A stretch of DNA of 63,270 nt from assembly GCA_964371875.1 (NCBI GenBank), contig CAYJOS010000001.1, positions 1 to 63,270 on the forward strand, read 5' to 3'. Below are positions 7,531 to 58,088 of this stretch, one piece after another. Source of the stretch: an uncultured Oscillospiraceae bacterium (GTDB lineage Bacteria; Bacillota; Clostridia; Oscillospirales; Oscillospiraceae). Below the pieces are notes generated by a model. That model made no database searches, was not told the origin of the DNA, and worked only from the letters and a program-made list of their open reading frames with translations. The stretch's first letter is position 1. Each line of letters begins with the position of its first letter. Both the position numbers and the translations under genes were made by a program.

Positions 7531-8347
7531 TTTTCCCCTCCGAAACTTGCTTTAATGAGGCATGGGATAAGCTTACAATTTCCTTGGGGTCAACGCAAAA
7601 ACGGCTTTCAAATTCGCCTTTTTTCAACCAAGCAAGGTATTCGATATTGCCCTCAGGGCCTTTGACAGGTGAAAAATTTAAGCCAATTATTGAAAATTCG
7701 GTTTGGCTGATATGCTCAATGAAGTTAAGCAAAACTTCCTCGTGTATCTCTGGTTCACGGACAACACCTTTTTTTCCGACCTTGTCTTTGCCTGCTTCGA
7801 ATTGAGGTTTTATCAGACATAAAATGTCCCCATTATCCTTTAAAAGCTGTGAAACAGCAGAAATTACTAACTTTATTGATATAAAACTTAAGTCCATAAC
7901 TGCAAGATCAAACTTTTCATTTATATCTTCAGGGGTGACATTCCTGATATTTGTCCGCTCCATGGAAACAACTCTCTCGTCGTTTCTAAGCTTCCAAGCG
8001 AGTTGACCATAGCCAACATCAACCGCATAAACTTTTTTTGCTCCATTTTGAAGCAAGCAATCTGTGAAACCGCCAGTCGAAGCTCCGCAGTCTATGCAGG
8101 TTAAGCCTTGAGGGTCATATTCAAAAACTGAAAGTGCTTTTTCAATTTTCAATCCACCACGGCTGACATATTTTAGGGTTTCGCCCCTGACTTCCACCAC
8201 GCAATCCTCAGGGACGCTCATTCCGGGTTTGTCGGCACGTTGTCCGTTGACGAAAACAATTCCACTCATCACAGAAGTTTTCGCACGCTCACGACTTTCG
8301 GTGAGTCCCCTGTCGAATATGAGTTGGTCAAGTCGAATTTTAGCCAT
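7523..8347 (-). CDS. tlyA: TlyA-family rRNA 2'-O-methyltransferase (hemolysin A-like)
   Basis: There is an N-terminal S4 domain (RLDQLIFDRGL) and an FtsJ-type SAM site (IDCGASTGGFTD). The ATG at 8347 follows AGGAGA. The upstream ATG at 8362 lies inside that RBS. Confidence 0.9.
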   Translation of the reverse strand: MAKIRLDQLIFDRGLTESRERAKTSVMSGIVFVNGQRADKPGMSVPEDCVVEVRGETLKYVSRGGLKIEKALSVFEYDPQGLTCIDCGASTGGFTDCLLQNGAKKVYAVDVGYGQLAWKLRNDERVVSMERTNIRNVTPEDINEKFDLAVMDLSFISIKLVISAVSQLLKDNGDILCLIKPQFEAGKDKVGKKGVVREPEIHEEVLLNFIEHISQTEFSIIGLNFSPVKGPEGNIEYLAWLKKGEFESRFCVDPKEIVSLSHASLKQVSEGKNE

Positions 8348-10184
8348 CGTGTTTCTCCTCATGTGAGTTTTTTAATAAGGTAAGACAGGTTTTTGCAATG
8401 CTTTCACTGTCGATTTTTGCAAGTTTTTTCAGTTCTGAAACTTCGCCATGCGTTAAAATTCCGTCACCTAAATTTAGGCATTTTACTTCGCAGTTTAGCA
8501 GTGGGGAAAGTTCAATTCCAACACTGCCAGCAGAGCAAACTTCCTCGACAATAACAGCGCATTTGCAGTTTTTTGTCATTGAAATTATCTTTTCTTTATC
8601 CAGTGGATTTATGATATTTAGCTTGATTATTTTGGCAGAAATATCAATTTTTTTAAGCAAATCCACTGCATCCAAAGCTTCATTTATCATAGTTCCATAG
8701 ACTATAATTGCGACATCTTCGCTCTCGCCGATTTCCACAACAGAGCTTGAAATTAGGCAGTCTTTATATCGCCCCTCGGCTCCTCTTGGGTATCTGATAG
8801 CGACAGGAGTTTGGATTACATTAATTGCCATGTCGAGCATTTTTTCTAATTCCACATAACTTGATGGACATAGAATTGTCATATTCGGAACAGTTTTTAG
8901 CAAGCTTACATCATAAACGCCGTTATGAGTTTCGCCGTCAGCGCCGACAATTCCTGCACGGTCGATAGCAAAAACCACATGGTGATTTGAAAGTGAAACA
9001 TCATGAATCATCATGTCAACAGTTCGCTGTAAAAAACTGGAGTAAACCGCAAAAACAGGACAAACTCCCTGAGCGGCAAGCCCAGCCGCCATTGAAACAG
9101 CGTGGCCTTCGGCTATGCCGACGTCGAAAATTCTGTCGGGAAAATTACTTGCAAAATTTGTAAGTCCAGTTCCACTGCCCATGGCAGCTGTGATTGCGAC
9201 AATGGACTCATCTTTTTCGGCGAGTTTTGTAAGGGTAGAACCGAAGACATCGGAAAAGGAATTTGAAGATTTTTTAACTCCGATTTTCGGGTCAAAAGAC
9301 GACACTCCGTGGTAAGTAGCAGGGTCTGCCTCGGCGAAAGGATAGCCTCTCCCCTTTTGGGTTTTAACATGTAAAAGTACAGGCTTTTCCATATCTTTTG
9401 CCATAGTTAAAGTGTGTTCAAGTTGTTTTATATTGTGTCCGTCCACAGGTCCAAGGTAGTAAAAACCCATACCTGTGAAAATGTTTTCTGGTAAAAATAT
9501 GCTTTTAATACCCTCTTTAATTCTGTGAGTGAGGGCATAAATTGGCAGAAAATTTCGCATAATTCGGCGATAAGCACGCTTAAATCGAATATAACCGCTT
9601 TTTACTCTAAGTTTCGACAACATACGAGCAGTTCCGCCGACATTTTGGGAAATACTCATTTCGTTGTCGTTTAAAATGACGACCATAGGCTCGCCGCTTC
9701 CACCGACGTTGCTCAAGCCCTCGTAAGCCAAACCGCCAGACAAAGCTCCGTCACCCAAAAGGCAGGCAACTGAATAGTCTTCATCCAAAACTTTTTTCGC
9801 CTTTGCCATTCCGAAAGCGACAGAAACAGAGTTTGAAGCATGACCTGCGATGAAGGCATCGTGAGTGCTTTCTGATGGTTTCGGAAAGCCTGAAATTCCG
9901 CCTGTATGCCTTAATTTTTCAAAGCCTTCTTGTCTTCCTGTTAAGATTTTATGGACATAACATTGGTGTCCAACATCAAAAATCAGTCTATCTTTTTCGG
10001 TGTCATAAACTCGGTGAATTGCAAGTGTAAGCTCAACAATTCCAAGATTTGAAGCCAAATGACCGCCGTTTTTTGAAACTTTTTCTATTAAAAATTCACG
10101 TATTTCTTCAGAAAGACTGTCTAGCTCTTTATAACTTAACTCCTGTAATTTGTCAGGAGATGTAATCGTATTTAAAATATTCAA
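8340..10184 (-). CDS. dxs: 1-deoxy-D-xylulose-5-phosphate synthase
   Basis: TPP-binding GDGALSGG and transketolase-like domains are present. The ORF opens at TTG 10244 with no RBS. The in-frame TTG at 10184 is preceded by GAGGA with an 8-nt spacer and gives the usual N-terminus (LNILNTITSPDKLQELS). Confidence 0.9.
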   Translation of the reverse strand: MNILNTITSPDKLQELSYKELDSLSEEIREFLIEKVSKNGGHLASNLGIVELTLAIHRVYDTEKDRLIFDVGHQCYVHKILTGRQEGFEKLRHTGGISGFPKPSESTHDAFIAGHASNSVSVAFGMAKAKKVLDEDYSVACLLGDGALSGGLAYEGLSNVGGSGEPMVVILNDNEMSISQNVGGTARMLSKLRVKSGYIRFKRAYRRIMRNFLPIYALTHRIKEGIKSIFLPENIFTGMGFYYLGPVDGHNIKQLEHTLTMAKDMEKPVLLHVKTQKGRGYPFAEADPATYHGVSSFDPKIGVKKSSNSFSDVFGSTLTKLAEKDESIVAITAAMGSGTGLTNFASNFPDRIFDVGIAEGHAVSMAAGLAAQGVCPVFAVYSSFLQRTVDMMIHDVSLSNHHVVFAIDRAGIVGADGETHNGVYDVSLLKTVPNMTILCPSSYVELEKMLDMAINVIQTPVAIRYPRGAEGRYKDCLISSSVVEIGESEDVAIIVYGTMINEALDAVDLLKKIDISAKIIKLNIINPLDKEKIISMTKNCKCAVIVEEVCSAGSVGIELSPLLNCEVKCLNLGDGILTHGEVSELKKLAKIDSESIAKTCLTLLKNSHEEKHDG

Positions 10185-22388: not shown

Positions 22389-22655
22389 TTATAGTATAGT
22401 GTGATTTTCCAATTTCTGACGTGTCTCCTCCATCAAAACGAGGATTTTTTCAGCTTGAATTGCAAACAATTCGCCCTCAGCAGTGAAAACAACGCCTTTA
22501 TTGCTCCGAGTGACCAAGTTTACACCTAGGTCAGCTTCCAATTTTTTGAGATTTTTTGTCAGTGTAGGTTGACTTATGTATAATTCCTGTGCAGTTTTAG
22601 ACAGGCTTTTTAGTTTATGTAGGGTCAAAATTATTTTGAAGTCCTCTTCCCGCAT
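22389..22655 (-). CDS. LysR-type HTH domain only (88 aa), either a truncated regulator or a remnant
   Basis: SKTAQELYISQPTLTKNLKKLEADLG is a LysR HTH_1 motif. There is no effector-binding domain and no clear RBS. The next gene starts about 70 nt downstream. Confidence 0.45.
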   Translation of the reverse strand: MREEDFKIILTLHKLKSLSKTAQELYISQPTLTKNLKKLEADLGVNLVTRSNKGVVFTAEGELFAIQAEKILVLMEETRQKLENHTIL

Positions 22656-22673: not shown

Positions 22674-24143
22674 CTAACAAAAATTTATGCACGATTTGTG
22701 CTTGGTGCTAATTCTAACGTCTAATTGAGAAAAATAATCCGATATTTTCTTGGAAATTATTGGGATTATTATATTTTCAGTGCAGTAATGCCCAGCGTCA
22801 ATTAAGTTCAATTCTGCTTCAACAGCTTGCATAAACTGATGGTATTTAATGTCAGCTGTGATGTAAGTATCGCATCCATGGGCGATTACAGCGTCAATCA
22901 AATCACCGCCTGAACCACCGCAAACTGCAATTCTTTTCACTGGTTTTCCTGAGGAATGAAAGCGTAAACCGCTCGCATTTAAGGTTTTTTTGGTGATTTC
23001 TAAAAATTCAGACATGGGAATTGCGGCAGAAATTTCGCCAAATCTCCCCATTCCTCCGCCGTTATACGCAGCGCCTGTGTCGACAGAACCAAAAACTCTG
23101 CATCCAAATTTTTCAATCAAAACATCGTTAACACCACCATCAACAATATCCAGATTTGTATGTAAACAGATAGCAGAAATTCCATTTTCTAGCATACGAA
23201 TAATTTTATGCCCCTCGCCTGTTGAGTCAGTGACAGATTTCAGCTTGAAAAAAAGCGGATGGTGGGAAACAATAAGTTCAGCTCCGATTTCAATCGCTTC
23301 TTCAATGACTTCGTTCGTGATGTCGAGTGCGCATAGCACTTTTGAAACTGGATTTGTGCTTTTTCCTACTAATAAACCGACATTGTCAAAGTCCATTTTC
23401 ATTTTTGAGGGTATGGATTTTTCAAAAAAATCCATTATTTCACAAATTTTAACCACGACTTTAGCTCTCCTCATTTTTTCAAGTTCTTTGACCAATTTTT
23501 CGTTTTCTGCCAATTTTGCATCTTCAGATGAATTTCTCATACCCAAAATTACTTTCTCAGTTTTGTCAATAATTTTGGATAAATACTCTCCAAACAGTTG
23601 TTCAGAGTTGTGCATTTCTTTTTTTCCGACAGCAAATTCAGCAAGATTATATGCTTCGCTTTTGCCACCGATGACTTCCATAATAGGGTAAATTCTGTCA
23701 TTATCTAGAACTAAATGCTCGTTTTTTATGTCAAATTCATTCTCAAATAGCCATTTTCTTAGTTCAAATTGCTTTGATTGTGGCTGTAAAATCAACTTTA
23801 TATCCTTTTTTATCCAAGAAACAGCAGAGAGAATATTTATAATTGTTTCCCCACCCATGCCGGCAATTATGATAGTGTCGGCAGAAAAAGGTGTAATTTC
23901 CAATAAACCATCGCTTAAAATGGTGGAAATTTTTTCTTCAAGTCCAAATTCGGAAATGAGAGCCTTCGCCCTGCTTAGGGGTTCGGCATTAAGGTCTGCG
24001 GCGATTGCAGATTTTACCAATTGATTTTGAACTAAGAAGACAGGAATTCTTCCGTGGTCAGTTCCGATATCGGCAACAGATGCGCCTTGGGGAACTAAAG
24101 AGGCTACGAGTTCTAGCCTCGGTTGTAATGTAATTTTTTCCAT
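22674..24143 (-). CDS. Fusion of tRNA (adenine22-N1)-methyltransferase TrmK with a Nif3-family dinuclear-metal protein
   Basis: Residues 1-225 are TrmK/DUF633-like (ADIGTDHGRIP, IIIAGMGGE, LILQP) with a coiled-coil tail. Residues 230-489 are NIF3-like (DNVGLLVG, VSHHPLFF, LHTNLD, DAGHY). The two parts form one uninterrupted frame. Confidence 0.85.
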   Translation of the reverse strand: MEKITLQPRLELVASLVPQGASVADIGTDHGRIPVFLVQNQLVKSAIAADLNAEPLSRAKALISEFGLEEKISTILSDGLLEITPFSADTIIIAGMGGETIINILSAVSWIKKDIKLILQPQSKQFELRKWLFENEFDIKNEHLVLDNDRIYPIMEVIGGKSEAYNLAEFAVGKKEMHNSEQLFGEYLSKIIDKTEKVILGMRNSSEDAKLAENEKLVKELEKMRRAKVVVKICEIMDFFEKSIPSKMKMDFDNVGLLVGKSTNPVSKVLCALDITNEVIEEAIEIGAELIVSHHPLFFKLKSVTDSTGEGHKIIRMLENGISAICLHTNLDIVDGGVNDVLIEKFGCRVFGSVDTGAAYNGGGMGRFGEISAAIPMSEFLEITKKTLNASGLRFHSSGKPVKRIAVCGGSGGDLIDAVIAHGCDTYITADIKYHQFMQAVEAELNLIDAGHYCTENIIIPIISKKISDYFSQLDVRISTKHKSCINFC

Positions 24144-24535: not shown

Positions 24536-24571
24536 AAAACTCACTAAAAATGAACTTTAGTGAGTTTTTTT
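24536..24571. terminator. Terminator ending the fla/che operon
   Basis: ctcactaaa (24540-24548) pairs with tttagtgag (24556-24564). A-runs and T-runs flank it on both sides. Confidence 0.7.
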
Positions 24572-24574
24572 ATT

Positions 24575-25147
24575 CTATTCAGGTTTATGATGAGGCATAC
24601 TTGAAACTTTAATACATGCTTTTATAATTTCGGCCAAAATTTGGCTTTCATATTTTTTCCAATAATAGTCAACCAAAGGTGAAATATTATCGGCATGTGC
24701 AACGACATATTTCGCTGGCAAATTTGACAAAGCAAGCGCAATTGTATCTGCAACACAACGTGAACAGGTGCAATTGCCAAACCTTACCATATAAGGCACG
24801 ACATTATCACCTACAATATTTTCCATTATACAGATATATTTATAAGTTTCGCCGTCAAGCTCTGCTGTTTTAGTGGTGGATTTTGCGGCAATCGGAAGCG
24901 CTTCAGGCGGAACTTTTCTGGGTCTTCCCCTCTTACCAGCTGGTTTTGCCGAGGGAGATGACTCAAGACCTGCCTCCAGCGATTTCCTGATACTGTCAGC
25001 CAAAGCTGTCGAACTTGTAGACGATGAAATAACGGAAACTCCTTTACCGCCTTCGTTGTCTTTTGGGTCTTGCTTTTGTTGAGTATCATTTTCACTGCCT
25101 GCTATTAAGTTTAAAACGTGGGCAGTTTTATTGCTTTTTCTAGGCAT
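24575..25147 (-). CDS. ComFB-domain protein with a basic N-terminus, a disordered linker and an AT-hook
   Basis: The C-terminal 95 aa match the ComFB pattern (MENIVGDNV...NCTCSRCVADTIALALSNLPAKYVV...MPHH). The N-terminus is MPRKSNK. The linker is Ser/Pro-rich and contains GKRGRPRKVP. Confidence 0.75.
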   Translation of the reverse strand: MPRKSNKTAHVLNLIAGSENDTQQKQDPKDNEGGKGVSVISSSTSSTALADSIRKSLEAGLESSPSAKPAGKRGRPRKVPPEALPIAAKSTTKTAELDGETYKYICIMENIVGDNVVPYMVRFGNCTCSRCVADTIALALSNLPAKYVVAHADNISPLVDYYWKKYESQILAEIIKACIKVSSMPHHKPE

Positions 25148-25160
25148 TTTTCACCACTCC

Positions 25161-25934
25161 TTACATCCTACCGTGCATTCGTTTCATCATTTCTATCACA
25201 AAATCTTTGTAATCTCTCGCCGGATTTGACCTCGGAGAATAGTCCAAAATGCTCATTCCATGAGCCGGCGCTTCTCCGACGGAAATTCCTGTCCTGATTT
25301 TAGTGTCAAAAACAACCGTTCCAATTTGGTCTGCAACCATTTCTGCCATGTCGCAAACATCGTTTGACAGACCTGATTTTTGATTATAACGTGTTAGAAT
25401 AATTCCAAGTACTTCCAATTCTGGGTTTAAAGATCGCTGAACTGCTTTAACTGTCTCCTTCAGCTGGGTAAGTCCAACTAGGCTTAAAATTTCTGCTGCC
25501 ATGGGAATTATCAAAAAATCCGCTGCAACATATCCATTTATTGTTAAAATATTTAGTGCCGGTGGAGTGTCTATGACTATATAATCGTAATAATCTTGAA
25601 CTTCTTCCAGTGCGTTTTTCAAAGTGTCCTGAGGGTTATCCTGCGAAAAAATTTGATTTCCCTCGCTCAGTAAAATATTTGAAATTAAAATATCCCCATT
25701 AGCCTCAGTTTCTTGAATTGCCTCGCTAACAGACATTGAACCGTTTAAAACATCATAAACCGAGTTTCCGTTTTCAATGTCCATGCCAAGGCAAAAGCCA
25801 AGGTTTCCCTGAGGGTCTAAATCGACGGATAATACACTTTTTCCCATTTTTATAAGCCCGGAGACCACAGCGCTTGTGGTGGTTGTTTTACCAACTCCAC
25901 CTTTTTGATTTGTTAAGACAATAGTAATTGCCAA
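25161..25934 (-). CDS. Orphan ParA/Soj-type deviant Walker A ATPase
   Basis: The motifs KGGVGKTTT, DLDPQGN and IDTPPAL are present. No ParB gene is nearby. It sits between cheV and the ComFB gene. Confidence 0.9.
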   Translation of the reverse strand: MAITIVLTNQKGGVGKTTTTSAVVSGLIKMGKSVLSVDLDPQGNLGFCLGMDIENGNSVYDVLNGSMSVSEAIQETEANGDILISNILLSEGNQIFSQDNPQDTLKNALEEVQDYYDYIVIDTPPALNILTINGYVAADFLIIPMAAEILSLVGLTQLKETVKAVQRSLNPELEVLGIILTRYNQKSGLSNDVCDMAEMVADQIGTVVFDTKIRTGISVGEAPAHGMSILDYSPRSNPARDYKDFVIEMMKRMHGRM

Positions 25935-25961
25935 AAAATGTCACCTCCAAGCTTTAATAAT

Positions 25962-26873
25962 CTAGTCTACAAATCCCATTAATTTGTCAATTTCGTTTAC
26001 AAGTAATCCAATATCAGGCTTTGACAACTGAACATTTGCTCCGAGTTCCTTACCTTTTAGCATCATTTCGGAGTTGATAAGTGAAGAGAAGATGATGACT
26101 GGTAAATGTTTGAATTTATCAGAACTTTTTATCAATTTTGTCAGCCTATGACCGTCCATTTGTGGCATTTCGATGTCTGTTATAATAACGTTCACGTGGG
26201 AGTCGATATTATCGCTGTCTTTAACACGCATAAGTCCGTCCCACAATTCTTGTCCATTGTTAAAGTGAGAAACTTTTGTATAGTTTGCATTTTCTAGCGA
26301 ATTTACAATAAGTTTTGTAAGTAATGAGGAGTCCTCTGCGAGGAAAATATGAACACTTTGTCTTAAATGAATGTCTTCTAATGCAAATTCTTGCTTTTTA
26401 AAACTAGTGTCTGGCGCGATATCGGCAACAATTTTTTCAAAGTCTAAAATGATGACAAGTCTTCCGTCACATTCAGTAACACCTGTTGCAACACTTTCCT
26501 TGCCTTGGTTTAAGGTAACATCAGGTTTTTTTATGTCTTTCCATGACATGCGCTGAATTCCAACAACAGATTGAACCCTAAAAGCGATGTTAACTTTGTT
26601 GAATCCTGTAATCATGAATAAATCACGAGATTTTGCCACGCTTTTCTCCCCTGTTAGGTAGAAAGGCAAATCAACAACTGTGAAAATTGTATCACGAGGT
26701 TTGAAAATACCCTCAATTGAAGCGTGAGAATGTGGGACAGGGTTTGCATCACATGCCATCATAATTTCACGCACTTTAGCAACGTTGATGCCATATAAAT
26801 CATCGTTGATGGTGAATTTCATAATTTCGATTTCGTTTGTTCCTGATTCAAGTAAAATTTCTGTCCTAAGCAT
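25962..26873 (-). CDS. cheV: CheV (CheW-like domain fused to a receiver domain)
   Basis: The N-terminal half is CheW-like. The C-terminal REC domain has LAEDSS...DIEMPQMDG...SSL. Confidence 0.9.
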   Translation of the reverse strand: MLRTEILLESGTNEIEIMKFTINDDLYGINVAKVREIMMACDANPVPHSHASIEGIFKPRDTIFTVVDLPFYLTGEKSVAKSRDLFMITGFNKVNIAFRVQSVVGIQRMSWKDIKKPDVTLNQGKESVATGVTECDGRLVIILDFEKIVADIAPDTSFKKQEFALEDIHLRQSVHIFLAEDSSLLTKLIVNSLENANYTKVSHFNNGQELWDGLMRVKDSDNIDSHVNVIITDIEMPQMDGHRLTKLIKSSDKFKHLPVIIFSSLINSEMMLKGKELGANVQLSKPDIGLLVNEIDKLMGFVD

Positions 26874-29521: not shown

Positions 29522-30310
29522 TTACGAATTTTCTGTTATATAAACTTTTAGTTTTTTAATTGCAGAAGTGTGGATTTGTGAAACTCGTGGTTCACTTATA
29601 TTGAGAATATTTGCAATGTCTTTCATATTAAGTTGTTCAACATAATAAAGTGACACAACAAGCTGTTCTTTTTCTTTGAGGGTTTCCACTCCATTTGCAA
29701 GAATTTTATGGAGTGCCTTTTCCATTACCCTCTCTTCGGGTTGTTCATAGCTGTTTTCGGAAACAAGTTGGACAGTGCTTTTGTTGTCCTCAGAGTCGTC
29801 TGTAATCATGTCTAGCGATAGCACAGACATAAAACTGCTTTTTTCCATTATATCACAGCATTTGGCTTCGTCAATTCCTAATATTGCCGAAATTTCTTCA
29901 ACATTAGGTTCTCTTCCGTTTTCCATGTAAAAATTTGTAATTGTATCGTTGATATCCTTATAAATTCTACGCTGTTCTCTTGGGACTAGGTCTTTTTTTC
30001 TGGCAATATCCAAAATCATTCCACGTATGCGTTTTGAAATATAGGTTTCAAATTTTATGTTTCTCTCGTGTTCAAATCTGTCAATTGCGCCCATTAAAAC
30101 GATAACGCCTTCGTTTATAATATCGTCAACTTGCTCATAACTGTCAAAAACTTTTTTCATTCTAAGCGCAATACTTTTAACTACATACAAATATCTCATG
30201 GCGATTTCTTGCTTAATATCAAGCCTGCCTGTGCTTTTGTATAGAGAAAAAAGTTCGTCATTAGAATAATCTGTCAATTGCGTAATTGTATTCATATTAG
30301 CCATCGACAT
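29522..30310 (-). CDS. fliA: Flagellar sigma factor, sigma-28 (FliA/SigD)
   Basis: Sigma-70 regions 2, 3 and 4 are present (region 4 is MKDIANILNISEPRVSQIHTSAIKKL). It starts immediately after flhA. Confidence 0.9.
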   Translation of the reverse strand: MSMANMNTITQLTDYSNDELFSLYKSTGRLDIKQEIAMRYLYVVKSIALRMKKVFDSYEQVDDIINEGVIVLMGAIDRFEHERNIKFETYISKRIRGMILDIARKKDLVPREQRRIYKDINDTITNFYMENGREPNVEEISAILGIDEAKCCDIMEKSSFMSVLSLDMITDDSEDNKSTVQLVSENSYEQPEERVMEKALHKILANGVETLKEKEQLVVSLYYVEQLNMKDIANILNISEPRVSQIHTSAIKKLKVYITENS

Positions 30311-30315
30311 CGCTC

Positions 30316-32373
30316 TTAACCTCGCTTAATATTTCCGATTGCTTGAATTTGTACGTTATTTGCAATTTCGTTAAAGGCTAAAACGTAAATATTTGGATAA
30401 AATTGCTCAAGCAATCTGTATAAGTACGGACGTATTACTTGACTTGTAAGTATGATTGTTTCCTGTGAAAGCTCTTGGAATTTTTTCATATTTTCTGCAA
30501 TTTGTGCTAGCATGCTTTGCATAATTTCTGGGTTGATTGCAAGATAAACGCCTTGGTCACTTTTTGCTTTGCTGGTTACAAGCATTTTTTCAAGTTCGGC
30601 ATCAATTGTGATAACACGCATCTGCCCTGCTTCGCAAAATCTTCTGGTGATTGTGCGTTTGAGTGCGGCACGGATATTTTCAGTGACTGTTGTGATGTCA
30701 AAACCTGAACCTGCTGAGTCTGCGACAGTTTCTAAAATTGTGTCCATGTCTTTTATTGGAATACCCTCTTTTAAGAGGTTTACAAGAATTTTTTGCAAAT
30801 TACCAGCCGAAATTATAGCAGGAACAACTTCATTTACTAATTCTTCTGAAGTTTTCTTAGTGTTTTCAAGAAGTAATGCAACCTCTTGTCTGCTGAGAAG
30901 TTCGTGTGCATGGTGTTTTATTGTTTCGGACAAGTGAGTTAGCATAACCGAAAGTGGGTCGATAACGGTGTAACCATAGATTTCAGCCATGTCTTTGTTC
31001 TCGGGTAAAATCCATTTACTGGGAATACCATAGGCTGGCTCAACCGTATCAATACCGTCGATAGCACCAGCTGGGCTTGAAGGTTCAAGCGCAAGATAGT
31101 GGTCAACCAAAATTTCGCCACGGGCAACTTCTTCGCCTTTTACTTTAACTATGTACTGATTTGTGTTAAGGCTAGATTTGTCACGAAGTCTGACCGAGGG
31201 TATAACAAAACCCATGGTTTGAGCATATTGACGTCTGAAAATGACAATTCGGTTAATCATTTTACCGCCGCTACCCTCGTCAACCATGGGTATAAGGCTG
31301 TAACCAAATTCCATTTCTATCGGTTCAACACCGACAAGTGAGTAAACATTGTTGATATCTCTGTAGTAATCTTCCTCTGAAACAGGCGTTTCGTCGGGAA
31401 CTTCGATGGGAGCTTTTGCAGCTTCCTCTTTTTCGCGCATTTTGACGGAAATTCTGTAACCGCCATAAATAAATGCAGCTGCTGCTATAAGCAGTGGAAT
31501 TACAGGCATTCCTGGGACTAAAGCAAGGATAATCAGCACAGCACCAGTCATCATAATAGCACGGGGTTGAGCCAAAAATTGCTTTGAAACGTCCTCGTTC
31601 AAGCTTCCTTCCGATACGGCACGAGTTACTATCATACCTGTGGAAGTTGAAATTAAAAGTGCGGGAATTTGTGAAACCAAACCGTCACCGACGGTTGCGA
31701 TTGAATAAACCTGAACAACTTCGGCAAACTCCATGCCCTCGCTCAAAAGTCCGACACCCGAACCGCCGATAAGGTTTATTGCTGTGATGATTAGCGACAT
31801 GATGGCGTCGCCTTTAACGATTTTTGTAGCACCGTCCATGGCACCGTAAAAATCAGCTTCTCTTTGAATTTTGTTTCGTCTTGCTCTTGCGTCTGCTTCG
31901 TTTATAAGACCAGAACTTAGGTCAGCGTCAATCGCCATTTGCTTACCTGGCATAGCGTCAAGAGTAAATCTTGCTGCAACTTCTGCGACACGCTCTGCAC
32001 CTTTGGTGATAACGATAAACTGGACAAGTACTATAATTAGAAATATTACAAGTCCGACGAATACATTTCCTTGCAGAACGAAGTCACCAAAAGACTTGAT
32101 AACCTGACCTGCCTCACCTCTTAATGTAAGGATGTTTCTGGTTGATGAAACGTTAATTCCTAGGCGGAATAGGGTTGTGATTAAGAGCAAAGATGGAAAA
32201 ATTGAAAATTCCAAAGGCTCTTTGATATTCATGCTGACAAGCAGAATAATCATCGAAATTGCAATATTTATAATAATCATGACGTCCAACATAAATGGAC
32301 TCATGGGGATGATCAAAAGAAGTACGATACCAATTACAGCTATAGCAACTGTATTGTTTAATAATCGCTTCAT
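30316..32373 (-). CDS. flhA: Flagellar export gate protein FlhA
   Basis: At 685 aa it has an N-terminal TM domain with FPSLLL and GAERVAEVAARFTLDAMPGKQMAIDADL, plus a cytoplasmic C-terminal domain. Confidence 0.95.
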   Translation of the reverse strand: MKRLLNNTVAIAVIGIVLLLIIPMSPFMLDVMIIINIAISMIILLVSMNIKEPLEFSIFPSLLLITTLFRLGINVSSTRNILTLRGEAGQVIKSFGDFVLQGNVFVGLVIFLIIVLVQFIVITKGAERVAEVAARFTLDAMPGKQMAIDADLSSGLINEADARARRNKIQREADFYGAMDGATKIVKGDAIMSLIITAINLIGGSGVGLLSEGMEFAEVVQVYSIATVGDGLVSQIPALLISTSTGMIVTRAVSEGSLNEDVSKQFLAQPRAIMMTGAVLIILALVPGMPVIPLLIAAAAFIYGGYRISVKMREKEEAAKAPIEVPDETPVSEEDYYRDINNVYSLVGVEPIEMEFGYSLIPMVDEGSGGKMINRIVIFRRQYAQTMGFVIPSVRLRDKSSLNTNQYIVKVKGEEVARGEILVDHYLALEPSSPAGAIDGIDTVEPAYGIPSKWILPENKDMAEIYGYTVIDPLSVMLTHLSETIKHHAHELLSRQEVALLLENTKKTSEELVNEVVPAIISAGNLQKILVNLLKEGIPIKDMDTILETVADSAGSGFDITTVTENIRAALKRTITRRFCEAGQMRVITIDAELEKMLVTSKAKSDQGVYLAINPEIMQSMLAQIAENMKKFQELSQETIILTSQVIRPYLYRLLEQFYPNIYVLAFNEIANNVQIQAIGNIKRG

Positions 32374-45807: not shown

Positions 45808-46632
45808 TTAAAGTCGTGCATTATTTAAAATTTCCTTGATATTTTCAAGCTGTGTTTTAACACTGATATCCATAATTGCATCGGGTGTTTCAACTATGCA
45901 AGTTCCTGGTTCGCTCTCGTCGATAACCACAATTTTTACACTTTCGGCTATATGCGAAATGCTCTCTAAAAATTCTGTATCGCCAGAAATGTCAATGCCT
46001 TCGCCACTATTACCTATATAAATTTTAGCCCAACTTACTTTTTTCATTTTTTCGGTTGCGACCAAAATCATTCGCTCAATAACTTCTTTGCTGGACTTCA
46101 AACTTGTTTGAACTATTTTTTCTCCGATTGCGATTGAAATATTTTTTAATGCATCTAAATATTGCTCTAAAAGCTTTTCTTTCTCCTCAGAAATTTCATA
46201 AATTTCATTTTCAAGTCTTTCCATAAAATTGTTGAGCTCTAAAGTGATTTTTTTGTCTGCATCTTCGGTTGCCCGTCGAAGACCTTCGGCATAGCCATCT
46301 TCTTCGCCTTTTGCAAATGACTCATTATATTTTTTTTCAGCCTCAACTTTGCATTTTTCCTCGGCTTGGAGAATGATTTGCGTTGCAGCTTCACGGGCGT
46401 CGGCAACTATTTGCTCTGCATCGGCAATTGCTTTTTGCAGTGTGTTTGTCGCCAAAAGATCCTCTTCAAAAACATCTTCTTCGGGGATGAATTCTTCTTC
46501 TACTTCTTCGATTTTAATTTCATCTATAATTTCTTCGATTATAGCAAAATTGCTGTCGAGATTTATGGTTTTGGGCACATAAAGACTGATTTCTCTATTG
46601 AAAGGGTTATCGGGCTTTAATATGTTAGACAA
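45808..46632 (-). CDS. fliH: Flagellar export stator FliH
   Basis: It has a charged coiled-coil middle and a FliH-type C-terminal domain. Its position is between fliG and fliI. Confidence 0.8.
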   Translation of the reverse strand: MSNILKPDNPFNREISLYVPKTINLDSNFAIIEEIIDEIKIEEVEEEFIPEEDVFEEDLLATNTLQKAIADAEQIVADAREAATQIILQAEEKCKVEAEKKYNESFAKGEEDGYAEGLRRATEDADKKITLELNNFMERLENEIYEISEEKEKLLEQYLDALKNISIAIGEKIVQTSLKSSKEVIERMILVATEKMKKVSWAKIYIGNSGEGIDISGDTEFLESISHIAESVKIVVIDESEPGTCIVETPDAIMDISVKTQLENIKEILNNARL

Positions 46633-50243: not shown

Positions 50244-50284
50244 ATTTGTGCGAACTTATTTATGTAAGCAATGGAGTGAAAAAC

Positions 50285-50965
50285 ATGAGTTTAAAATTGT
50301 GTAGCAAAGCTGCGATATACGACAACGATGGTGATACCATTCTTTGTCAGGCAAGCGTTAGGGATGTAGATGGAAATACTGCAACCCTTGTTTTTGATGA
50401 AAATGATATAGAAATACTCGAATCAGAAATGATAATTACATTTTATGATGATGTTTTGGGTTTGATTACATACAATTGTCAACTTGCGGCAGGAAAAAAG
50501 TTTATAGACAAAGACAGAAAATATAAACAAGCACTTAAATGCGTACTTGGAGAGCAATTGTCCGTTCTTCAAAGAAGGTCTGACATTAAAGTTCATGTCG
50601 ACATTCCTGTCAGATTGCTAATTCCGCCAACTGTTGAACTGCCGCCCGAATTTTCCGAAGGTGAAAAACATAGGGGGGCAACGATTGTTGTGGGCACAGC
50701 CTTTGACCTAAGCGCCGGAGGACTGTTTCTACACACCTTGTGCGACATCCCTGAGGAGAGCAGCTTTAGTATTTTGTTGCCTGTTTCGTCCGACAAGGCG
50801 ATTGAGCTTGACGTGACTATGCTTAGAAAAGTGCCACCTGAAGAAAATGCTGAAAATAAAAATTTTGGCTATGGCTGCAAATTTGTCAATATGAGTTCAA
50901 GCACAGAAACAACCATACGTAGCTTTGTCTTTAGACAGCAAATGTTAAATCGTAAAATGAGATAA
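50285..50965 (+). CDS. PilZ-domain protein (YcgR/MotI-like candidate c-di-GMP receptor)
   Basis: The ATG is at 50285. The PilZ motifs are QRRSDIK (the second Arg of RxxxR is replaced by Lys) and DLSAGG (DxSxxG). The length is 227 aa. Confidence 0.75.
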   Translation: MSLKLCSKAAIYDNDGDTILCQASVRDVDGNTATLVFDENDIEILESEMIITFYDDVLGLITYNCQLAAGKKFIDKDRKYKQALKCVLGEQLSVLQRRSDIKVHVDIPVRLLIPPTVELPPEFSEGEKHRGATIVVGTAFDLSAGGLFLHTLCDIPEESSFSILLPVSSDKAIELDVTMLRKVPPEENAENKNFGYGCKFVNMSSSTETTIRSFVFRQQMLNRKMR

Positions 50966-51022: not shown

Positions 51023-51364
51023 CTATTCAGCCTCAACTACCTCAGCTGTTCCGGTTTCTTCAAGAATTTCGGCTTTGGTTTCGTCAATCAATCCTGAGGG
51101 TTTGTAGTTTAGGAAGTAGATATAAATATCGACTATCGCACGGTAAAGTTCTTCAGGAATTTCAGAGCCGAGTTTTAACTGAGTGAGCATGGTTGCAAGT
51201 GAGTTGTCTTCATAGACAGGAATGGAATTTTCCCTTGCGACTTCGACAATTTTCTCCGCAAGATATCCCATGCCAGAGGCAACTATAATCGGTGCGGCTT
51301 TGCCTGCTTCGTCATAGGAAAGCGCAACCGCCTTTTGGTTTAAAATTTCATTAAATTGAGACAT
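51023..51364 (-). CDS. Soluble paralog of the FlhB C-terminal domain (YlqH-like)
   Basis: KAVALSYDEAGKAAPIIVASGMGYLAEKIVEVARENSIPVYEDNSLATML...IPEELYRAIVDI aligns with the post-NPTH part of FlhB at 32377..33438. It has no TM region. Confidence 0.8.
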   Translation of the reverse strand: MSQFNEILNQKAVALSYDEAGKAAPIIVASGMGYLAEKIVEVARENSIPVYEDNSLATMLTQLKLGSEIPEELYRAIVDIYIYFLNYKPSGLIDETKAEILEETGTAEVVEAE

Positions 51365-52784
51365 TTACAGAGTTTTTCCTTTCAAAAATTTGTGGAAATG
51401 CAGTGGAAATTGGAATTGAACGCTTGTCGGTTTCTATAAAAAGTTCATCGGTTTTGATGTTATTTAAAGCCAAAATTCTGGAAATTTCATCTCGAATTAT
51501 GCCTATATCTTTTTCCAATTCCTCGGGGCAATTTAGCTGTAATTTTATGCTTTCGTTTGTGTATAAAAAGTATAAATCAAAAAATCCAACCTCTTGAATG
51601 TCGAATTTTATAAGACCTTGCAAAGTCTTTTCTTTGCCGTTTTTGTCCTTATTTCCCTCGGCGTCGGGGTCTATCCACATCTCGGAAAACATCAGTCTTT
51701 CGCCAACTTGTAGTGGTAACATCAAGTGCAAAACAGGCATATAAACGCTTTCGTTTAGTAGTATAGACTGCATTAAATTTCTGAAAACCATTTTGTTTTC
51801 AAGCCCTGCTTCGCCTGAAGCTCCGTTACGGATTAGCTCTATCATGCTGTCTGCCCACTCTTGTTGGTTTGCGGTTTTTTTATAGTCAGTTCCTTCCAAA
51901 ACTTGAAGCAAAACTGAGGTGTCGAAGTTTTTAAATTCCTGTTGCATGGCTTGATATTTCATGAGATTTTCAAAGGCCATAACAACACGGTCAGCAGAGC
52001 CGTTTTCACATCTTGCCATCAAAGTTGCAAGTGCAGCCGTGAGGTCACGAAGGTTTCCTCTGTTGTTGTTTCGGGTTATGTAATTATTCAGGAAGGGCAA
52101 AATTTCACCTTTGAAAACAGTGATATTTTCAGCCATACCCTCTCCCCTGCTACCTATATTATAATTGAGTTTTGTCAGCAGAGTATGGAAACCCTCCTTT
52201 GAAGATTGGAGCAAGTTTTTGTCAATTTGGTTTAACAAATCCGAAGCTGTGTTCATAAGGTGCGAACTCTCGCTCATATCGGTGTATCTTCGCAGAAAAT
52301 CCAAAATTCCCGTTTTGAGTTCAACTGAAGTTGTGTTTTCAAGTACTTGATTTAGTAAGGTGAAAAATGAACCTGTGAATTTTAAAGATGCGTTGGCTTG
52401 GTTTTGGACATAGTTTAAAACGTCAGCTTCGCCCATGCCTATCATTTCAAAAAATTGGGCAATTTGCTCTGCAAAATTATTTCCAACACCTGATTCAACT
52501 ATAGAGCCGAATTTTTGGAAAAATAATTTTGAAAATTCTTCGGTCATATTCGGGAGCATTTTTGTCTGCTGTACAAAATTTTCAAAGTTTGAGTCATATC
52601 GGAATTTTAGCCCAACCCCATTATCTTGCGGTGCTGAATCGCTTCGAGCGTCAGGTTTTGAAACCTTATCGGGCGTTATCGGCGCTTGAATTGCGGGGTC
52701 TGTGGTCTTCACGGGCCCTGTTTTCACATGATTTGCATTATCAAAACCACTTATAGGGGTGGTAACTTTTAATATATTAGACAT
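51351..52784 (-). CDS. Hypothetical 477-aa protein translationally coupled to the FlhB-C paralog (YlqG-like position)
   Basis: The ORF is long and uninterrupted and overlaps the downstream gene by 14 nt. The N-terminus is disordered. I recognised no catalytic motif. Confidence 0.6.
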   Translation of the reverse strand: MSNILKVTTPISGFDNANHVKTGPVKTTDPAIQAPITPDKVSKPDARSDSAPQDNGVGLKFRYDSNFENFVQQTKMLPNMTEEFSKLFFQKFGSIVESGVGNNFAEQIAQFFEMIGMGEADVLNYVQNQANASLKFTGSFFTLLNQVLENTTSVELKTGILDFLRRYTDMSESSHLMNTASDLLNQIDKNLLQSSKEGFHTLLTKLNYNIGSRGEGMAENITVFKGEILPFLNNYITRNNNRGNLRDLTAALATLMARCENGSADRVVMAFENLMKYQAMQQEFKNFDTSVLLQVLEGTDYKKTANQQEWADSMIELIRNGASGEAGLENKMVFRNLMQSILLNESVYMPVLHLMLPLQVGERLMFSEMWIDPDAEGNKDKNGKEKTLQGLIKFDIQEVGFFDLYFLYTNESIKLQLNCPEELEKDIGIIRDEISRILALNNIKTDELFIETDKRSIPISTAFPQIFERKNSVNVSI

Positions 52785-56447: not shown

Positions 56448-56469
56448 TAAAAAAATTTTAAATTTTTAC

Positions 56470-56496
56470 TTAAGTAATTAATTTAACCGCCGATAT
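56470..56496 (+). promoter_or_regulatory. Sigma-28 (SigD/FliA) promoter of the flagellin gene
   Basis: The -10 is an exact GCCGATAT at 56489-56496. The -35-like element is TTAA/TAAG at 56470-56474, with a 14-15-nt spacer. Confidence 0.8.
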
Positions 56497-56557
56497 ATCT
56501 AAGTGAACATGAAACAGTGTTGCGCGCCACGGTTTCTTGTAATACAATTTAAAAAAG

Positions 56558-56597: not shown

Positions 56598-58088
56598 ATG
56601 CGTATTCAACATAATATTACAGCTCTAAACTCATACCGTAACCTAGGTATCAACAACAGTGCAGTTTCTAAAAACCTAGAAAAACTTTCTTCAGGTTATA
56701 GAATCAACCGCGCTGGTGACGATGCTGCTGGTCTTGCTATCTCTGAAAAAATGAGATCACAAATCACAGGTCTTGAAACAGCTCAAAAGAATGCTCAAGA
56801 CGGTATTTCACTTGTTCAAACTGCTGAAGGTGCTCTAACTGAAGTTCACTCAATGCTAAACCGTATGGTTGAGCTTGCAACACAATCTTCAAACGGTATC
56901 TATACAGATTCTGACCGTGCAAAACTAAACGACGAAATCAACCAACTAAACGACGAAATCGACAGAATTTCTGAAGCTACAAACTTCAACGGCATCAACC
57001 TACTTGATGGTTCTCTAGCTTCTAAAGCTGGTGTAAGCGGAGTTACAACTGATATAGCTGGTACAACCACTCCGTTAGCAGCAACTGGTGGTGCTAAATT
57101 CTCACAAGTCCTAACATTTGCTCAGGGCACTGACGAAGAAACTCAAACAGTTGAACTTGCTTACTTAGATAAAGATGGTGTGGCACAAAATGCTACAATT
57201 TCTTTTACAGCAGGTTCAACAGCTGCTGAAACAGGCACTAGTGCTCTTGAAGCACTTAAAGGTGTATTTGGTGAAGGATATACACTTACTGCTTCTGCTG
57301 CTGCTATCACTATAACAGCAAACGAAATTGTTGGTGAAGAAACATCAGTTCTAAAAATGACACAATATGATGGTACTTCTACAACAGCTGAAACAACAAC
57401 TGTCGCTGCAGCAACAGCTGGTAAAGATAATCTATATACAGCAACACTCAATACCGCAGATTTGGCAGATGAAATTTTCTTAGAAGTTGACGGACAAAAA
57501 TTCCAAGTTCTTTCTGAAGGTAAAACTGCTGAAGCTGGATACACAGGGATTTTTGTTGACCAACAAACAGGCGCACTAACAGGAGACTCAATCAAAGAAG
57601 TTGCAACTCAACTACAAGAACTTGGTATTGATGTTAAAGCAACTGCTACAGCACTAGAATTTACAGAAAAAACTGATTCATCTGTTAAAGGTGGTCTAAC
57701 ACTACAAATCGGTGATACATCAGACCAATTCAACAAACTAATTGTTGGTGTTCAAGATATGAGTGCTGATGCTCTAGGTCTAGGCTCACTTGATATCTCA
57801 ACATATGAAGGCGCTTCTGCTGCTATCGATGCTATCAACGCTGCTATCGAAAAAGTTTCAACAACTCGTTCAGCAATGGGTGCTATCCAAAACCGCCTTG
57901 ACCACACAATCAACAACCTAGGTGTTACAACTGAAAACATGACTGCTGCTGAAAGCCGTATTCGTGACGTTGACATGGCTAAGGAAATGATGGAATATAC
58001 AAAGAACAATATCCTTGTTCAATCTTCACAAGCTATGCTTGCGCAAGCTAACCAAATTCCACAAGGCGTTCTACAACTTCTACAATAA
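56598..58088 (+). CDS. fliC: Flagellin
   Basis: The conserved N-terminus is [16 protein letters not shown]...[23 protein letters not shown] and the C-terminus is [18 protein letters not shown]. The central region is variable and Thr/Ala-rich. Confidence 0.95.

Follow-up and report, generated by a model that had tools for sequence, protein, structure and literature searches.

A Conserved ParA-ComFB Gene Pair in Flagellar Loci of Clostridia Is a Candidate Positioning Module with a Second-Messenger-Sensing Partner

Introduction

Structures organized by ParA/MinD ATPases include chromosomes, carboxysomes, flagella, and chemoreceptor arrays. These ATPases work with a variety of partners, and a large number of them are still "orphans." The described systems closest to the one considered here are Vibrio ParC/ParP and Rhodobacter sphaeroides PpfA/TlpT, in which an orphan ParA protein is encoded among motility or chemotaxis genes and its adjacent partner is thought to engage it via the N-terminus. 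Here we describe a ParA-type ATPase and a ComFB-domain protein encoded by neighboring genes in a 63,270-nucleotide stretch of DNA (the window; GenBank assembly GCA_964371875.1, contig CAYJOS010000001.1, positions 1–63,270) from an uncultured Oscillospiraceae bacterium. The pair recurs among flagellar genes in Clostridia and very probably represents a ParA/partner module dedicated to motility; its sequence features point to a candidate positioning module whose partner would belong to a new class that senses a second messenger.

The two array systems differ from the present pair in the domains of the partner: Vibrio ParP binds the array by a CheW-like domain, and TlpT is itself a chemoreceptor, whereas the partner here has a ComFB domain only. 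The constant neighbor of the present pair is fliD and not a che gene, and we know of no second-messenger sensor described in either array system. FlhF/FlhG (FleN, YlxH) are similar to the pair in that a ParA/MinD-family ATPase is encoded with flagellar genes. However, FlhG is MinD-like, with a C-terminal membrane helix, an N-terminal FlhF-activating helix, and the GTPase FlhF as its mate, whereas the ATPase described here is Soj-like, has neither helix, and is mated with a ComFB protein. Soj/ParA-Spo0J/ParB and McdA-McdB share with the pair a deviant Walker A motif, an intact catalytic set, and an R189-type basic residue in the ATPase, and their partners likewise begin with a short conserved peptide, followed by a disordered spacer and a C-terminal part that dimerizes. 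In contrast to these systems, no ParB, parS-type system, or carboxysome accompanies the present pair, and the partner is unrelated in sequence and has an acidic linker.

ComFB proteins are reported to bind cyclic di-GMP (c-di-GMP) or cyclic di-AMP (c-di-AMP) and to affect motility (PMC12448109, PMC12265714). Most of those described are stand-alone domains, unlike the partner here, which carries an N-terminal peptide. A ComFB survey describes several domain fusions as well as flagellar neighborhoods in T. denticola and B. subtilis; in the passages searched, it reports neither a ParA neighbor nor an N-terminal ParA-type peptide (PMC12448109). PilZ-type flagellar brakes (YcgR, MotI) are also c-di-GMP receptors encoded in or beside flagellar operons, but their fold is unrelated and, lacking an ATPase partner, they act on the motor directly. 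A literature search found no paper that pairs ComFB with ParA or describes this two-gene unit, and a preliminary description of this DNA, made from the sequence alone, stated that the domain combination and its location are not, as far as its author knew, a described system.

Results

The ParA and ComFB Genes Are Inherited as a Unit

From 215 genomes found by scanning one genome per species, 80 loci (designated by L numbers) were fetched. In 79 of the 80, the gene directly upstream of the ComFB gene is a co-directional ParA gene, whose product is 47–85% identical to the window ParA; the sole locus without an upstream ParA gene is a contig of 937 bp. The gap between the ParA stop codon and the partner start has a median of 13 nt, and the genes overlap in 17 of 74 pairs. 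Given this near-invariable adjacency and direction, the pairing is far beyond chance and the pair is inherited as a unit, as anticipated by the preliminary description, which had proposed a two-gene module. A word-indexed search with the partner yielded 130 relatives, all with the ComFB domain PF10719, and when 1.84 billion cluster representatives were searched exhaustively with a profile, 576 matched with E ≤ 1e-30 and 1198 with E ≤ 1e-10, most of the top matches listed covering the profile from end to end.

The carriers comprise Lachnospiraceae (Dorea, Mediterraneibacter, Sporofaciens, Faecalimonas, Schaedlerella, and others), Oscillospiraceae (e.g. Lawsonibacter), Anaerotignum, metagenome-assembled genomes (MAGs) labeled Ruminococcus, Filifactoraceae, Epulonipiscium MAGs, and other Clostridia; cultured carriers are Anaerotignum propionicum, A. 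neopropionicum, Mediterraneibacter glycyrrhizinilyticus, Sporofaciens musculi, and Dorea sp. 5-2. A few loci have peculiarities of their own. L007 (13179–13418, minus strand) and L012 (12291–12530, minus strand) contain a second short ComFB-like stretch a few kilobases downstream on the opposite strand, which may be a stand-alone paralogue. At L055 (~10001–10120), an open reading frame (ORF) that opens with the N-terminal peptide described below stops after 38 codons although tblastn aligns the full query length, which suggests a frameshift, pseudogene, or assembly error.

In the window, the ParA gene (25161..25934, minus strand) encodes 257 residues from a TTG start codon, preceded by seven bases and the ribosome-binding site GGAGGTG (25942..25948, minus strand), and the partner gene (24575..25147, minus strand) encodes 190 residues and starts 13 nt past the ParA stop codon. 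Pfam identifies AAA_31 (3e-49) and CbiA (3.8e-21) in the ParA-like protein, which carries the motifs NQKGGVGKTTT and DLDPQGN, and ComFB (PF10719; 9.5e-13, 48.5 bits against a gathering cut-off of 25) at residues 107–185 of the partner. These results bear out the preliminary description as to the two ORFs, their coordinates and place behind cheC-cheD-cheV, the KGGVGKTTT and DLDPQGN motifs, and the ComFB C-terminus. Its remark that no parB lies nearby also holds: no ParB-type gene was found among the Pfam-scanned ORFs of the window, a set that comprises all but a few of its ORFs and takes in each gene on either side of the pair between 22389 and 49295.

The ATPase Is of the Soj/ParA Type

The deviant Walker A motif KGGVGKTT (residues 11–18; 25881..25904, minus strand), with its signature lysine K11, can be read directly from the sequence and is invariant in 75 ParA sequences derived from the loci, as is the whole Walker A, A′, and B set (K11, G12, K16, D38, D40, and D122, 75/75). 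By sequence, the protein belongs to the ParA/MinD (A/D) P-loop ATPase superfamily and is predicted to be a catalytically intact Soj-type ATPase. Its best solved relatives are 8ray (1.7e-39), a mycobacterial ParA-like protein (2e-37), Thermus Soj (1e-34), and H. pylori Soj (3.5e-33), whereas MinD structures reach only ~1e-13, ~25 orders of magnitude weaker than the ParA-type matches. The Soj/ParA-type identity assigned to the protein in the preliminary description is thus supported by both the AAA_31 match and the closest structures. No NCBIfam model reaches its cut-off for the window ParA (ParA_partition, 95 bits against a cut-off of 180), and among the best 120 ParA homologues, nearly all of which are at least 56% identical to the window protein, the names are generic only.

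The ATPase has no N-terminal extension, the Walker A motif beginning at residue 11, and the C-terminal tails of the family vary in both length and sequence; on account of this variability, the family is predicted to lack a membrane-targeting helix of the MinD/FlhG type. Non-specific DNA binding by B. subtilis Soj involves R189, R215, and R218. The R189 equivalent is an arginine in 67/75 family members and a lysine (K186) in the window protein, an assignment with which the Thermus Soj alignment agrees, and the R215 and R218 equivalents appear not to be basic in the family. The protein is a Soj-like orphan that probably binds the nucleoid.

The Partner Has a Conserved N-Terminal Peptide and a Usually Acidic Linker

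Partner family members are 188–479 residues long, the window protein being among the shortest, and an alignment of 119 members resolves four parts: an N-terminal peptide, a second amphipathic helix, a low-complexity linker, and the ComFB domain. The N-terminal peptide (MPRKSNKTAHVLNLIA, residues 1–16; 25100..25147, minus strand), which is modeled as a short helix at residues 7–16, is the most conserved segment of the partner outside the ComFB domain. Its 15-residue consensus is M-A-[KR]-K-[ST]-N-K-T-A-H-V-L-N-L-[IL], in which K7, T8, V11, and L14 are invariant and A9, L12, and N13 occur in at least 90% of the 119 sequences; some partners, mostly those of Oscillospiraceae and Lawsonibacter-type genomes, have a longer basic lead-in (..KSGKSSKTARVLNLL). 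The basic N-terminus "MPRKSNK" highlighted in the preliminary description is therefore present and conserved, but the real element is this longer peptide with its four invariant residues. When the motif was searched for in the 80 loci and the window, 80 of 81 matches were ComFB partners and the remaining one was a truncated copy, so no other protein carrying the peptide was found in this set. Partners of ParA/MinD ATPases act via a charged N-terminal peptide, a rule that the conserved partner N-terminus fits (PMC10241942, PMC11407121); we propose that it is a ParA-docking and ParA-activating peptide.

The second conserved amphipathic helix (residues 45–62, ..ALADSIRKSLEAGLE..; 24962..25015, minus strand) contains the invariant L57 and, in at least 90% of the 119 sequences, I53. 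In the AlphaFold2 model, in which residues 7–16 and 45–62 form helices and residues 20–42 and 64–98 are disordered, the mean predicted local distance difference test score (pLDDT) of this helix is 79 at residues 51–60. The linker of the family is of low complexity and strongly acidic (median values, 162 residues and a net charge of −25); that of the window protein is the only non-acidic one. It contains an AT-hook-like core, GKRGRPRKVP (residues 71–80; 24908..24937, minus strand), within a disordered region (pLDDT <50 at residues 64–74 and a block mean of 49 at residues 71–80). An RGRP-type core occurs in 1/165 family members, namely the window protein (KRGRPRK, residues 72–78), and the closest homologue (59% identical) has a poly-Asp run at this position. 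The AT-hook, being unique to the window protein, is not part of the conserved mechanism, and we reject, as a feature of the family, the nucleoid contact that the preliminary description proposed for it.

The ComFB Domain Retains Most Residues at c-di-GMP Contact Positions

The C-terminal ComFB domain (residues 102–185; 24593..24844, minus strand) contains a C-x-C-x2-C…C cysteine set and is modeled with block-mean pLDDT values of 93–98 (residues 101–180) and 88 (residues 181–190). The modeled domain matches BsComFB of B. subtilis (4WAI) with a template modeling (TM) score of 0.75–0.77 and a root-mean-square deviation of 2.2 Å, and also matches Synechocystis CdgR with c-di-GMP (8HJA); the partner profile matches 4WAI at 3e-6. 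Membership of the ComFB family and, as modeled, the ComFB fold are thus confirmed for the partner, which shares with BsComFB and CdgR the link to motility and has the BsComFB-type cysteines. Residues C126, C128, C131, C178, D134, Y147, P185, and H187 are invariant in the 119-member alignment.

In BsComFB numbering, the c-di-GMP contacts given in the survey are electrostatic for D33, N40, and R/K41, hydrophobic for A36, L37, and V47, and stacking for Y55 (PMC12448109). Most residues at these positions are retained in the partner family: D33 is an aspartate in 119/119 partners, A36 an alanine in 118/119, and L37 a leucine in 115/119; V47 is valine or isoleucine, N40 is serine, asparagine, or threonine, and Y55 is tyrosine, phenylalanine, methionine, or isoleucine. 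Of the other BsComFB residues counted toward dimerization or c-di-GMP contact (N4, E7, and Y46), the tyrosine corresponding to Y46 is likewise kept in 119/119 partners, and N4 is an asparagine in 116/119 and a cysteine in the window protein. Unlike in the described proteins, the position of R/K41 is occupied by asparagine or glycine in 108/119 partners and by a basic residue in only 4/119. The survey also gives dissociation constants for BsComFB variants of 12.6 μM (D33A) and 5.0 μM (N40A), both reflecting weaker binding, and of 0.45 μM for K41A, the affinity of which is barely changed (PMC12448109). Binding of c-di-GMP or c-di-AMP by the partner is plausible from these residues, and we lean slightly toward it.

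The genes around the pair fit c-di-GMP signaling in two respects. In many Lachnospiraceae loci, cheV is followed by one final gene that converges on the ComFB gene and encodes a 411-residue EAL+HDOD protein (L009, 10845–12080, minus strand, and equivalents), which is another c-di-GMP-related protein at the cheV/ComFB junction. In the window, the gene for a PilZ-domain protein (50246–50965, plus strand), possibly a flagellar brake of the YcgR/MotI type, diverges from the start of the fla operon, and the presence of this gene beside that operon suggests that c-di-GMP acts on motility in the source organism too.

The Pair Usually Forms a Separate Operon between fliD and the fla/che Operon End

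Flagellar surroundings were found in each of those among the 80 loci that offered enough context, so the tie to fla/che genes claimed in the preliminary description holds in relatives. Where more than 3 kb of upstream sequence was available, fliD is divergent from parA and lies less than 600 nt from it in 64/65 loci; beyond fliD are fliS, a small ORF of fliT size (in many loci), and an ABC ATPase gene. The FliD cap proteins adjoining the pair are unusually long (810–1034 residues; L025, 5920–9009; L047, 5884–8988; L009, 6662–9118). On the downstream side, the convergent neighbor is either the fla/che operon end (flhB-flhA-sigD-rod-rod-cheC-cheD-cheV), frequently separated from the ComFB gene by a gene for an EAL+HDOD protein or for a methyl-accepting chemotaxis protein (MCP), or csrA-DUF6470-flgL, the latter mostly in Oscillospiraceae and Lawsonibacter-type MAGs. 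The pair is co-directional behind cheV only in the window and its closest relatives, L001 and L002 (uncultured Oscillospiraceae MAGs); in these two loci fliD-fliS come after the ComFB gene, and no fliD was found in the window. The usual layout is therefore a separate bicistronic operon between fliD and the fla/che operon end, and that of the window is a local inversion or rearrangement. The preliminary description, which called the pair the last two genes of the fla/che operon, is correct for the window, L001, and L002, but elsewhere the pair has its own operon divergent from fliD.

The intergenic region between fliD and parA in L003–L080 (e.g. L009, ~9119–9227; L060, ~8344–8538) contains a conserved element of ~45 nt, CTCTGTACTTATTTATCGGCATATAGTATACTTTAAATAATAG, the reverse complement of which carries GCCGATAA, a sigma-28-type −10 box directed at fliD. 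The parA strand has a possible sigma-A promoter (TTATCG, 17 nt, nATAAT) that overlaps the element, which suggests that the fliD and parA promoters are arranged back-to-back and overlap. A sigma-28 consensus pattern was found upstream of parA in 1/72 related loci only, ~166 nt upstream; the conserved CCGATA-type box faces fliD. A candidate internal sigma-28 promoter for parA inside cheV in the window (GCCGATAT at 26425, minus strand) was rejected because the octamer occurs six times in the window, close to the number expected by chance.

In the window, cheV (CheW domain plus receiver domain by Pfam; 25962..26873, minus strand) lies immediately upstream of parA in the same operon, and no terminator was found in the 27-nt gap between them, which also contains the parA ribosome-binding site. 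Further upstream on the same strand are cheD, cheC, two rod genes, and the genes for the FliA/SigD sigma factor, flhA, and flhB; the complete operon also includes fliF, fliG, fliI, fliJ, fliK, flgD, flgE, motA, motB, and fliM, followed by cheY, fliY, fliO, fliP, and fliR, then flhB and flhA. In Bacillus and Clostridium, flhF-flhG follow flhA. Here, flhA runs directly into the FliA/SigD gene (29522–32373 in the window), as it does in every locus with both genes in view, and flhF-flhG are thus missing from their usual place. Directly past the partner stop codon is a palindromic hairpin with a 13-bp stem flanked by A and T runs (24536..24568), which the terminator scan called on the plus strand only. 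As the sequence is a palindrome, the minus strand presents the same stem followed by a T-rich 3′ flank (TTTTATATTT), and we read the hairpin as a putative two-way intrinsic terminator that also ends the minus-strand operon.

Discussion

An intact ParA followed by a presumably co-translated partner that combines a short charged N-terminal peptide, a long spacer, and a dimerizing head leads us to propose that the partner acts as a "luggage-tag" adaptor, the peptide of which would drive the ParA cycle while the ComFB head senses a nucleotide and holds a cargo. ATP-bound ParA dimers would coat the nucleoid, and the N-terminal peptide of the partner would dock on the ParA dimer and trigger ATP hydrolysis and release, by analogy with ParB, MinE, McdB, PomX, and TlpT. 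The ComFB head, which would be dimeric and hence bivalent, would bind c-di-GMP or c-di-AMP and hold a motility-related cargo, so that the level of the second messenger sets the place or the number of cargo units. The parts of this proposal differ in weight. Contact between the N-terminal peptide and ParA is likely, and the module is probably gated by c-di-GMP; the complete picture, that of a ParA/partner pair dedicated to the motility apparatus with cargo placement set by a second messenger, is the best overall reading available to us, and we hold it tentatively.

With respect to the cargo, the absence of flhF-flhG after flhA, the context of fliD, fliS, flgL, and csrA, and the effect of BsComFB on flagella (PMC12265714) favor the flagellar basal body or C-ring, the number or spacing of flagella being what is controlled, although this identification is possible rather than expected. 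It is conceivable that the pair substitutes for FlhF/FlhG in a clade that lacks flhF-flhG at the usual site after flhA. The wider proposal, that the pair exemplifies a new class of ParA/MinD partner with a cyclic-dinucleotide-receptor head, in which c-di-GMP switches the ParA reaction, and that it replaces FlhF/FlhG in flagellated gut Lachnospiraceae and Oscillospiraceae by setting the number or spacing of flagella or arrays, is one that we consider doubtful. Several observations weigh against a nucleotide-gated, nucleoid-based module that places flagella. Of the three DNA-binding arginines of Soj, two have not been retained, which leaves nucleoid binding uncertain; the partner family has lost the basic residue at BsComFB position 41, although K41A has hardly any effect on affinity in BsComFB; flagella are membrane embedded, and their known organizer, FlhG, works on the membrane rather than the nucleoid; and most neighbors of the pair (fliD, fliS, flgL, csrA, cheV, and MCP genes) are late-class genes in model organisms, whereas placement factors act early. 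The absence of flhF-flhG, moreover, refers to the canonical site after flhA in the window and in related loci with both flhA and sigD in view.

The same mechanism might instead serve a chemoreceptor array, in which case the pair would function analogously to Vibrio ParC/ParP or Rhodobacter PpfA/TlpT and would space or segregate clusters over the nucleoid. Described ParA-like ATPases from che clusters position arrays, and nucleoid-based ParA proteins suit a cytoplasmic cargo. The gene context points in both directions: the pair adjoins the cheC-cheD-cheV operon end or lies within a few kilobases of it, an MCP gene is directly downstream in L060-type loci, and a cheA gene is also present in the window, but the tightest and most constant neighbor is fliD-fliS and not a che gene, and loci of the csrA type (e.g. 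L025, L047, and L078) show no che gene in the downstream sequence examined. Pfam also finds no CheW-like, MCP-like, or other array-binding domain in the partner. We regard an array cargo as unlikely. In a regulatory alternative, c-di-GMP would control binding of the ComFB head to a transcription factor or motor component, and the nucleoid-bound ParA would act as a sink or switch, comparable to FleN-FleQ, Soj-DnaA, and CdgR-DevH. In cyanobacteria, CdgR/ComFB proteins act via transcription factors (PMC10068817, PMC12448109, bioRxiv 10.64898/2026.03.27.713163), BsComFB inhibits the function of flagella and not their production (PMC12265714), and the conserved ~45-nt element common to the parA upstream region and the sigma-28-type fliD promoter would allow coupled regulation. 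However, an intact ATPase, a ParB-like N-terminal peptide, and a long spacer are the typical layout of a cargo-positioning system, and neither protein has a DNA-binding domain beyond the non-specific binding by ParA; a regulatory role of this kind appears quite unlikely.

If the ATPase were simply a Soj of chromosome or plasmid partition, or a FlhG that has been displaced, and the ComFB gene a mere neighbor, this would accord with the public names ("ParA family," "chromosome partitioning protein," "Soj") and, in the former case, with Soj/ParA being the closest solved structures. Such an origin is very improbable given the pairing in 79/80 loci across families with operon-like spacing, the lack of a parB gene among the scanned ORFs of the window, and a context that is flagellar and not origin-proximal. 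A displaced FlhG in particular is rejected, as the ATPase has no N-terminal activator helix, C-terminal membrane helix, or flhF neighbor and its MinD-type matches are far weaker. If the proposed adaptor role is confirmed, this would be the first case, as far as is known, of a second messenger wired directly into a ParA positioning cycle. The pair would also name a partner for a large clade of orphan ParA proteins, the partner family itself comprising hundreds of clusters at 50% identity, and would be the first candidate effector machine for the ComFB receptor family. The carriers belong to the motile gut and rumen microbiota, the flagellar biology of which matters for flagellin sensing by the host and has been little studied.

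Other Features of the Window

Beyond the hairpin that follows the partner gene are a DUF1858 gene and then a single ORF of 489 residues (22674–24143, minus strand) that fuses TrmK tRNA (m1A22) methyltransferase and NIF3/DUF34 domains, which are encoded by separate adjacent genes in B. subtilis. An ORF of 88 residues (22389–22655, minus strand) consists of a LysR-type helix-turn-helix (HTH) domain alone and is either the remnant of a truncated regulator or a stand-alone HTH protein. Two ORFs associated with the fla operon have no Pfam match, one of 477 residues just upstream of it (51351–52784, minus strand) and one in the fliH position (45808–46632, minus strand). A sigma-28-type promoter-like sequence, CTTAAG..N14..GCCGATAT (56463–56497, plus strand), lies ~100 nt upstream of a flagellin gene (56598–58088).

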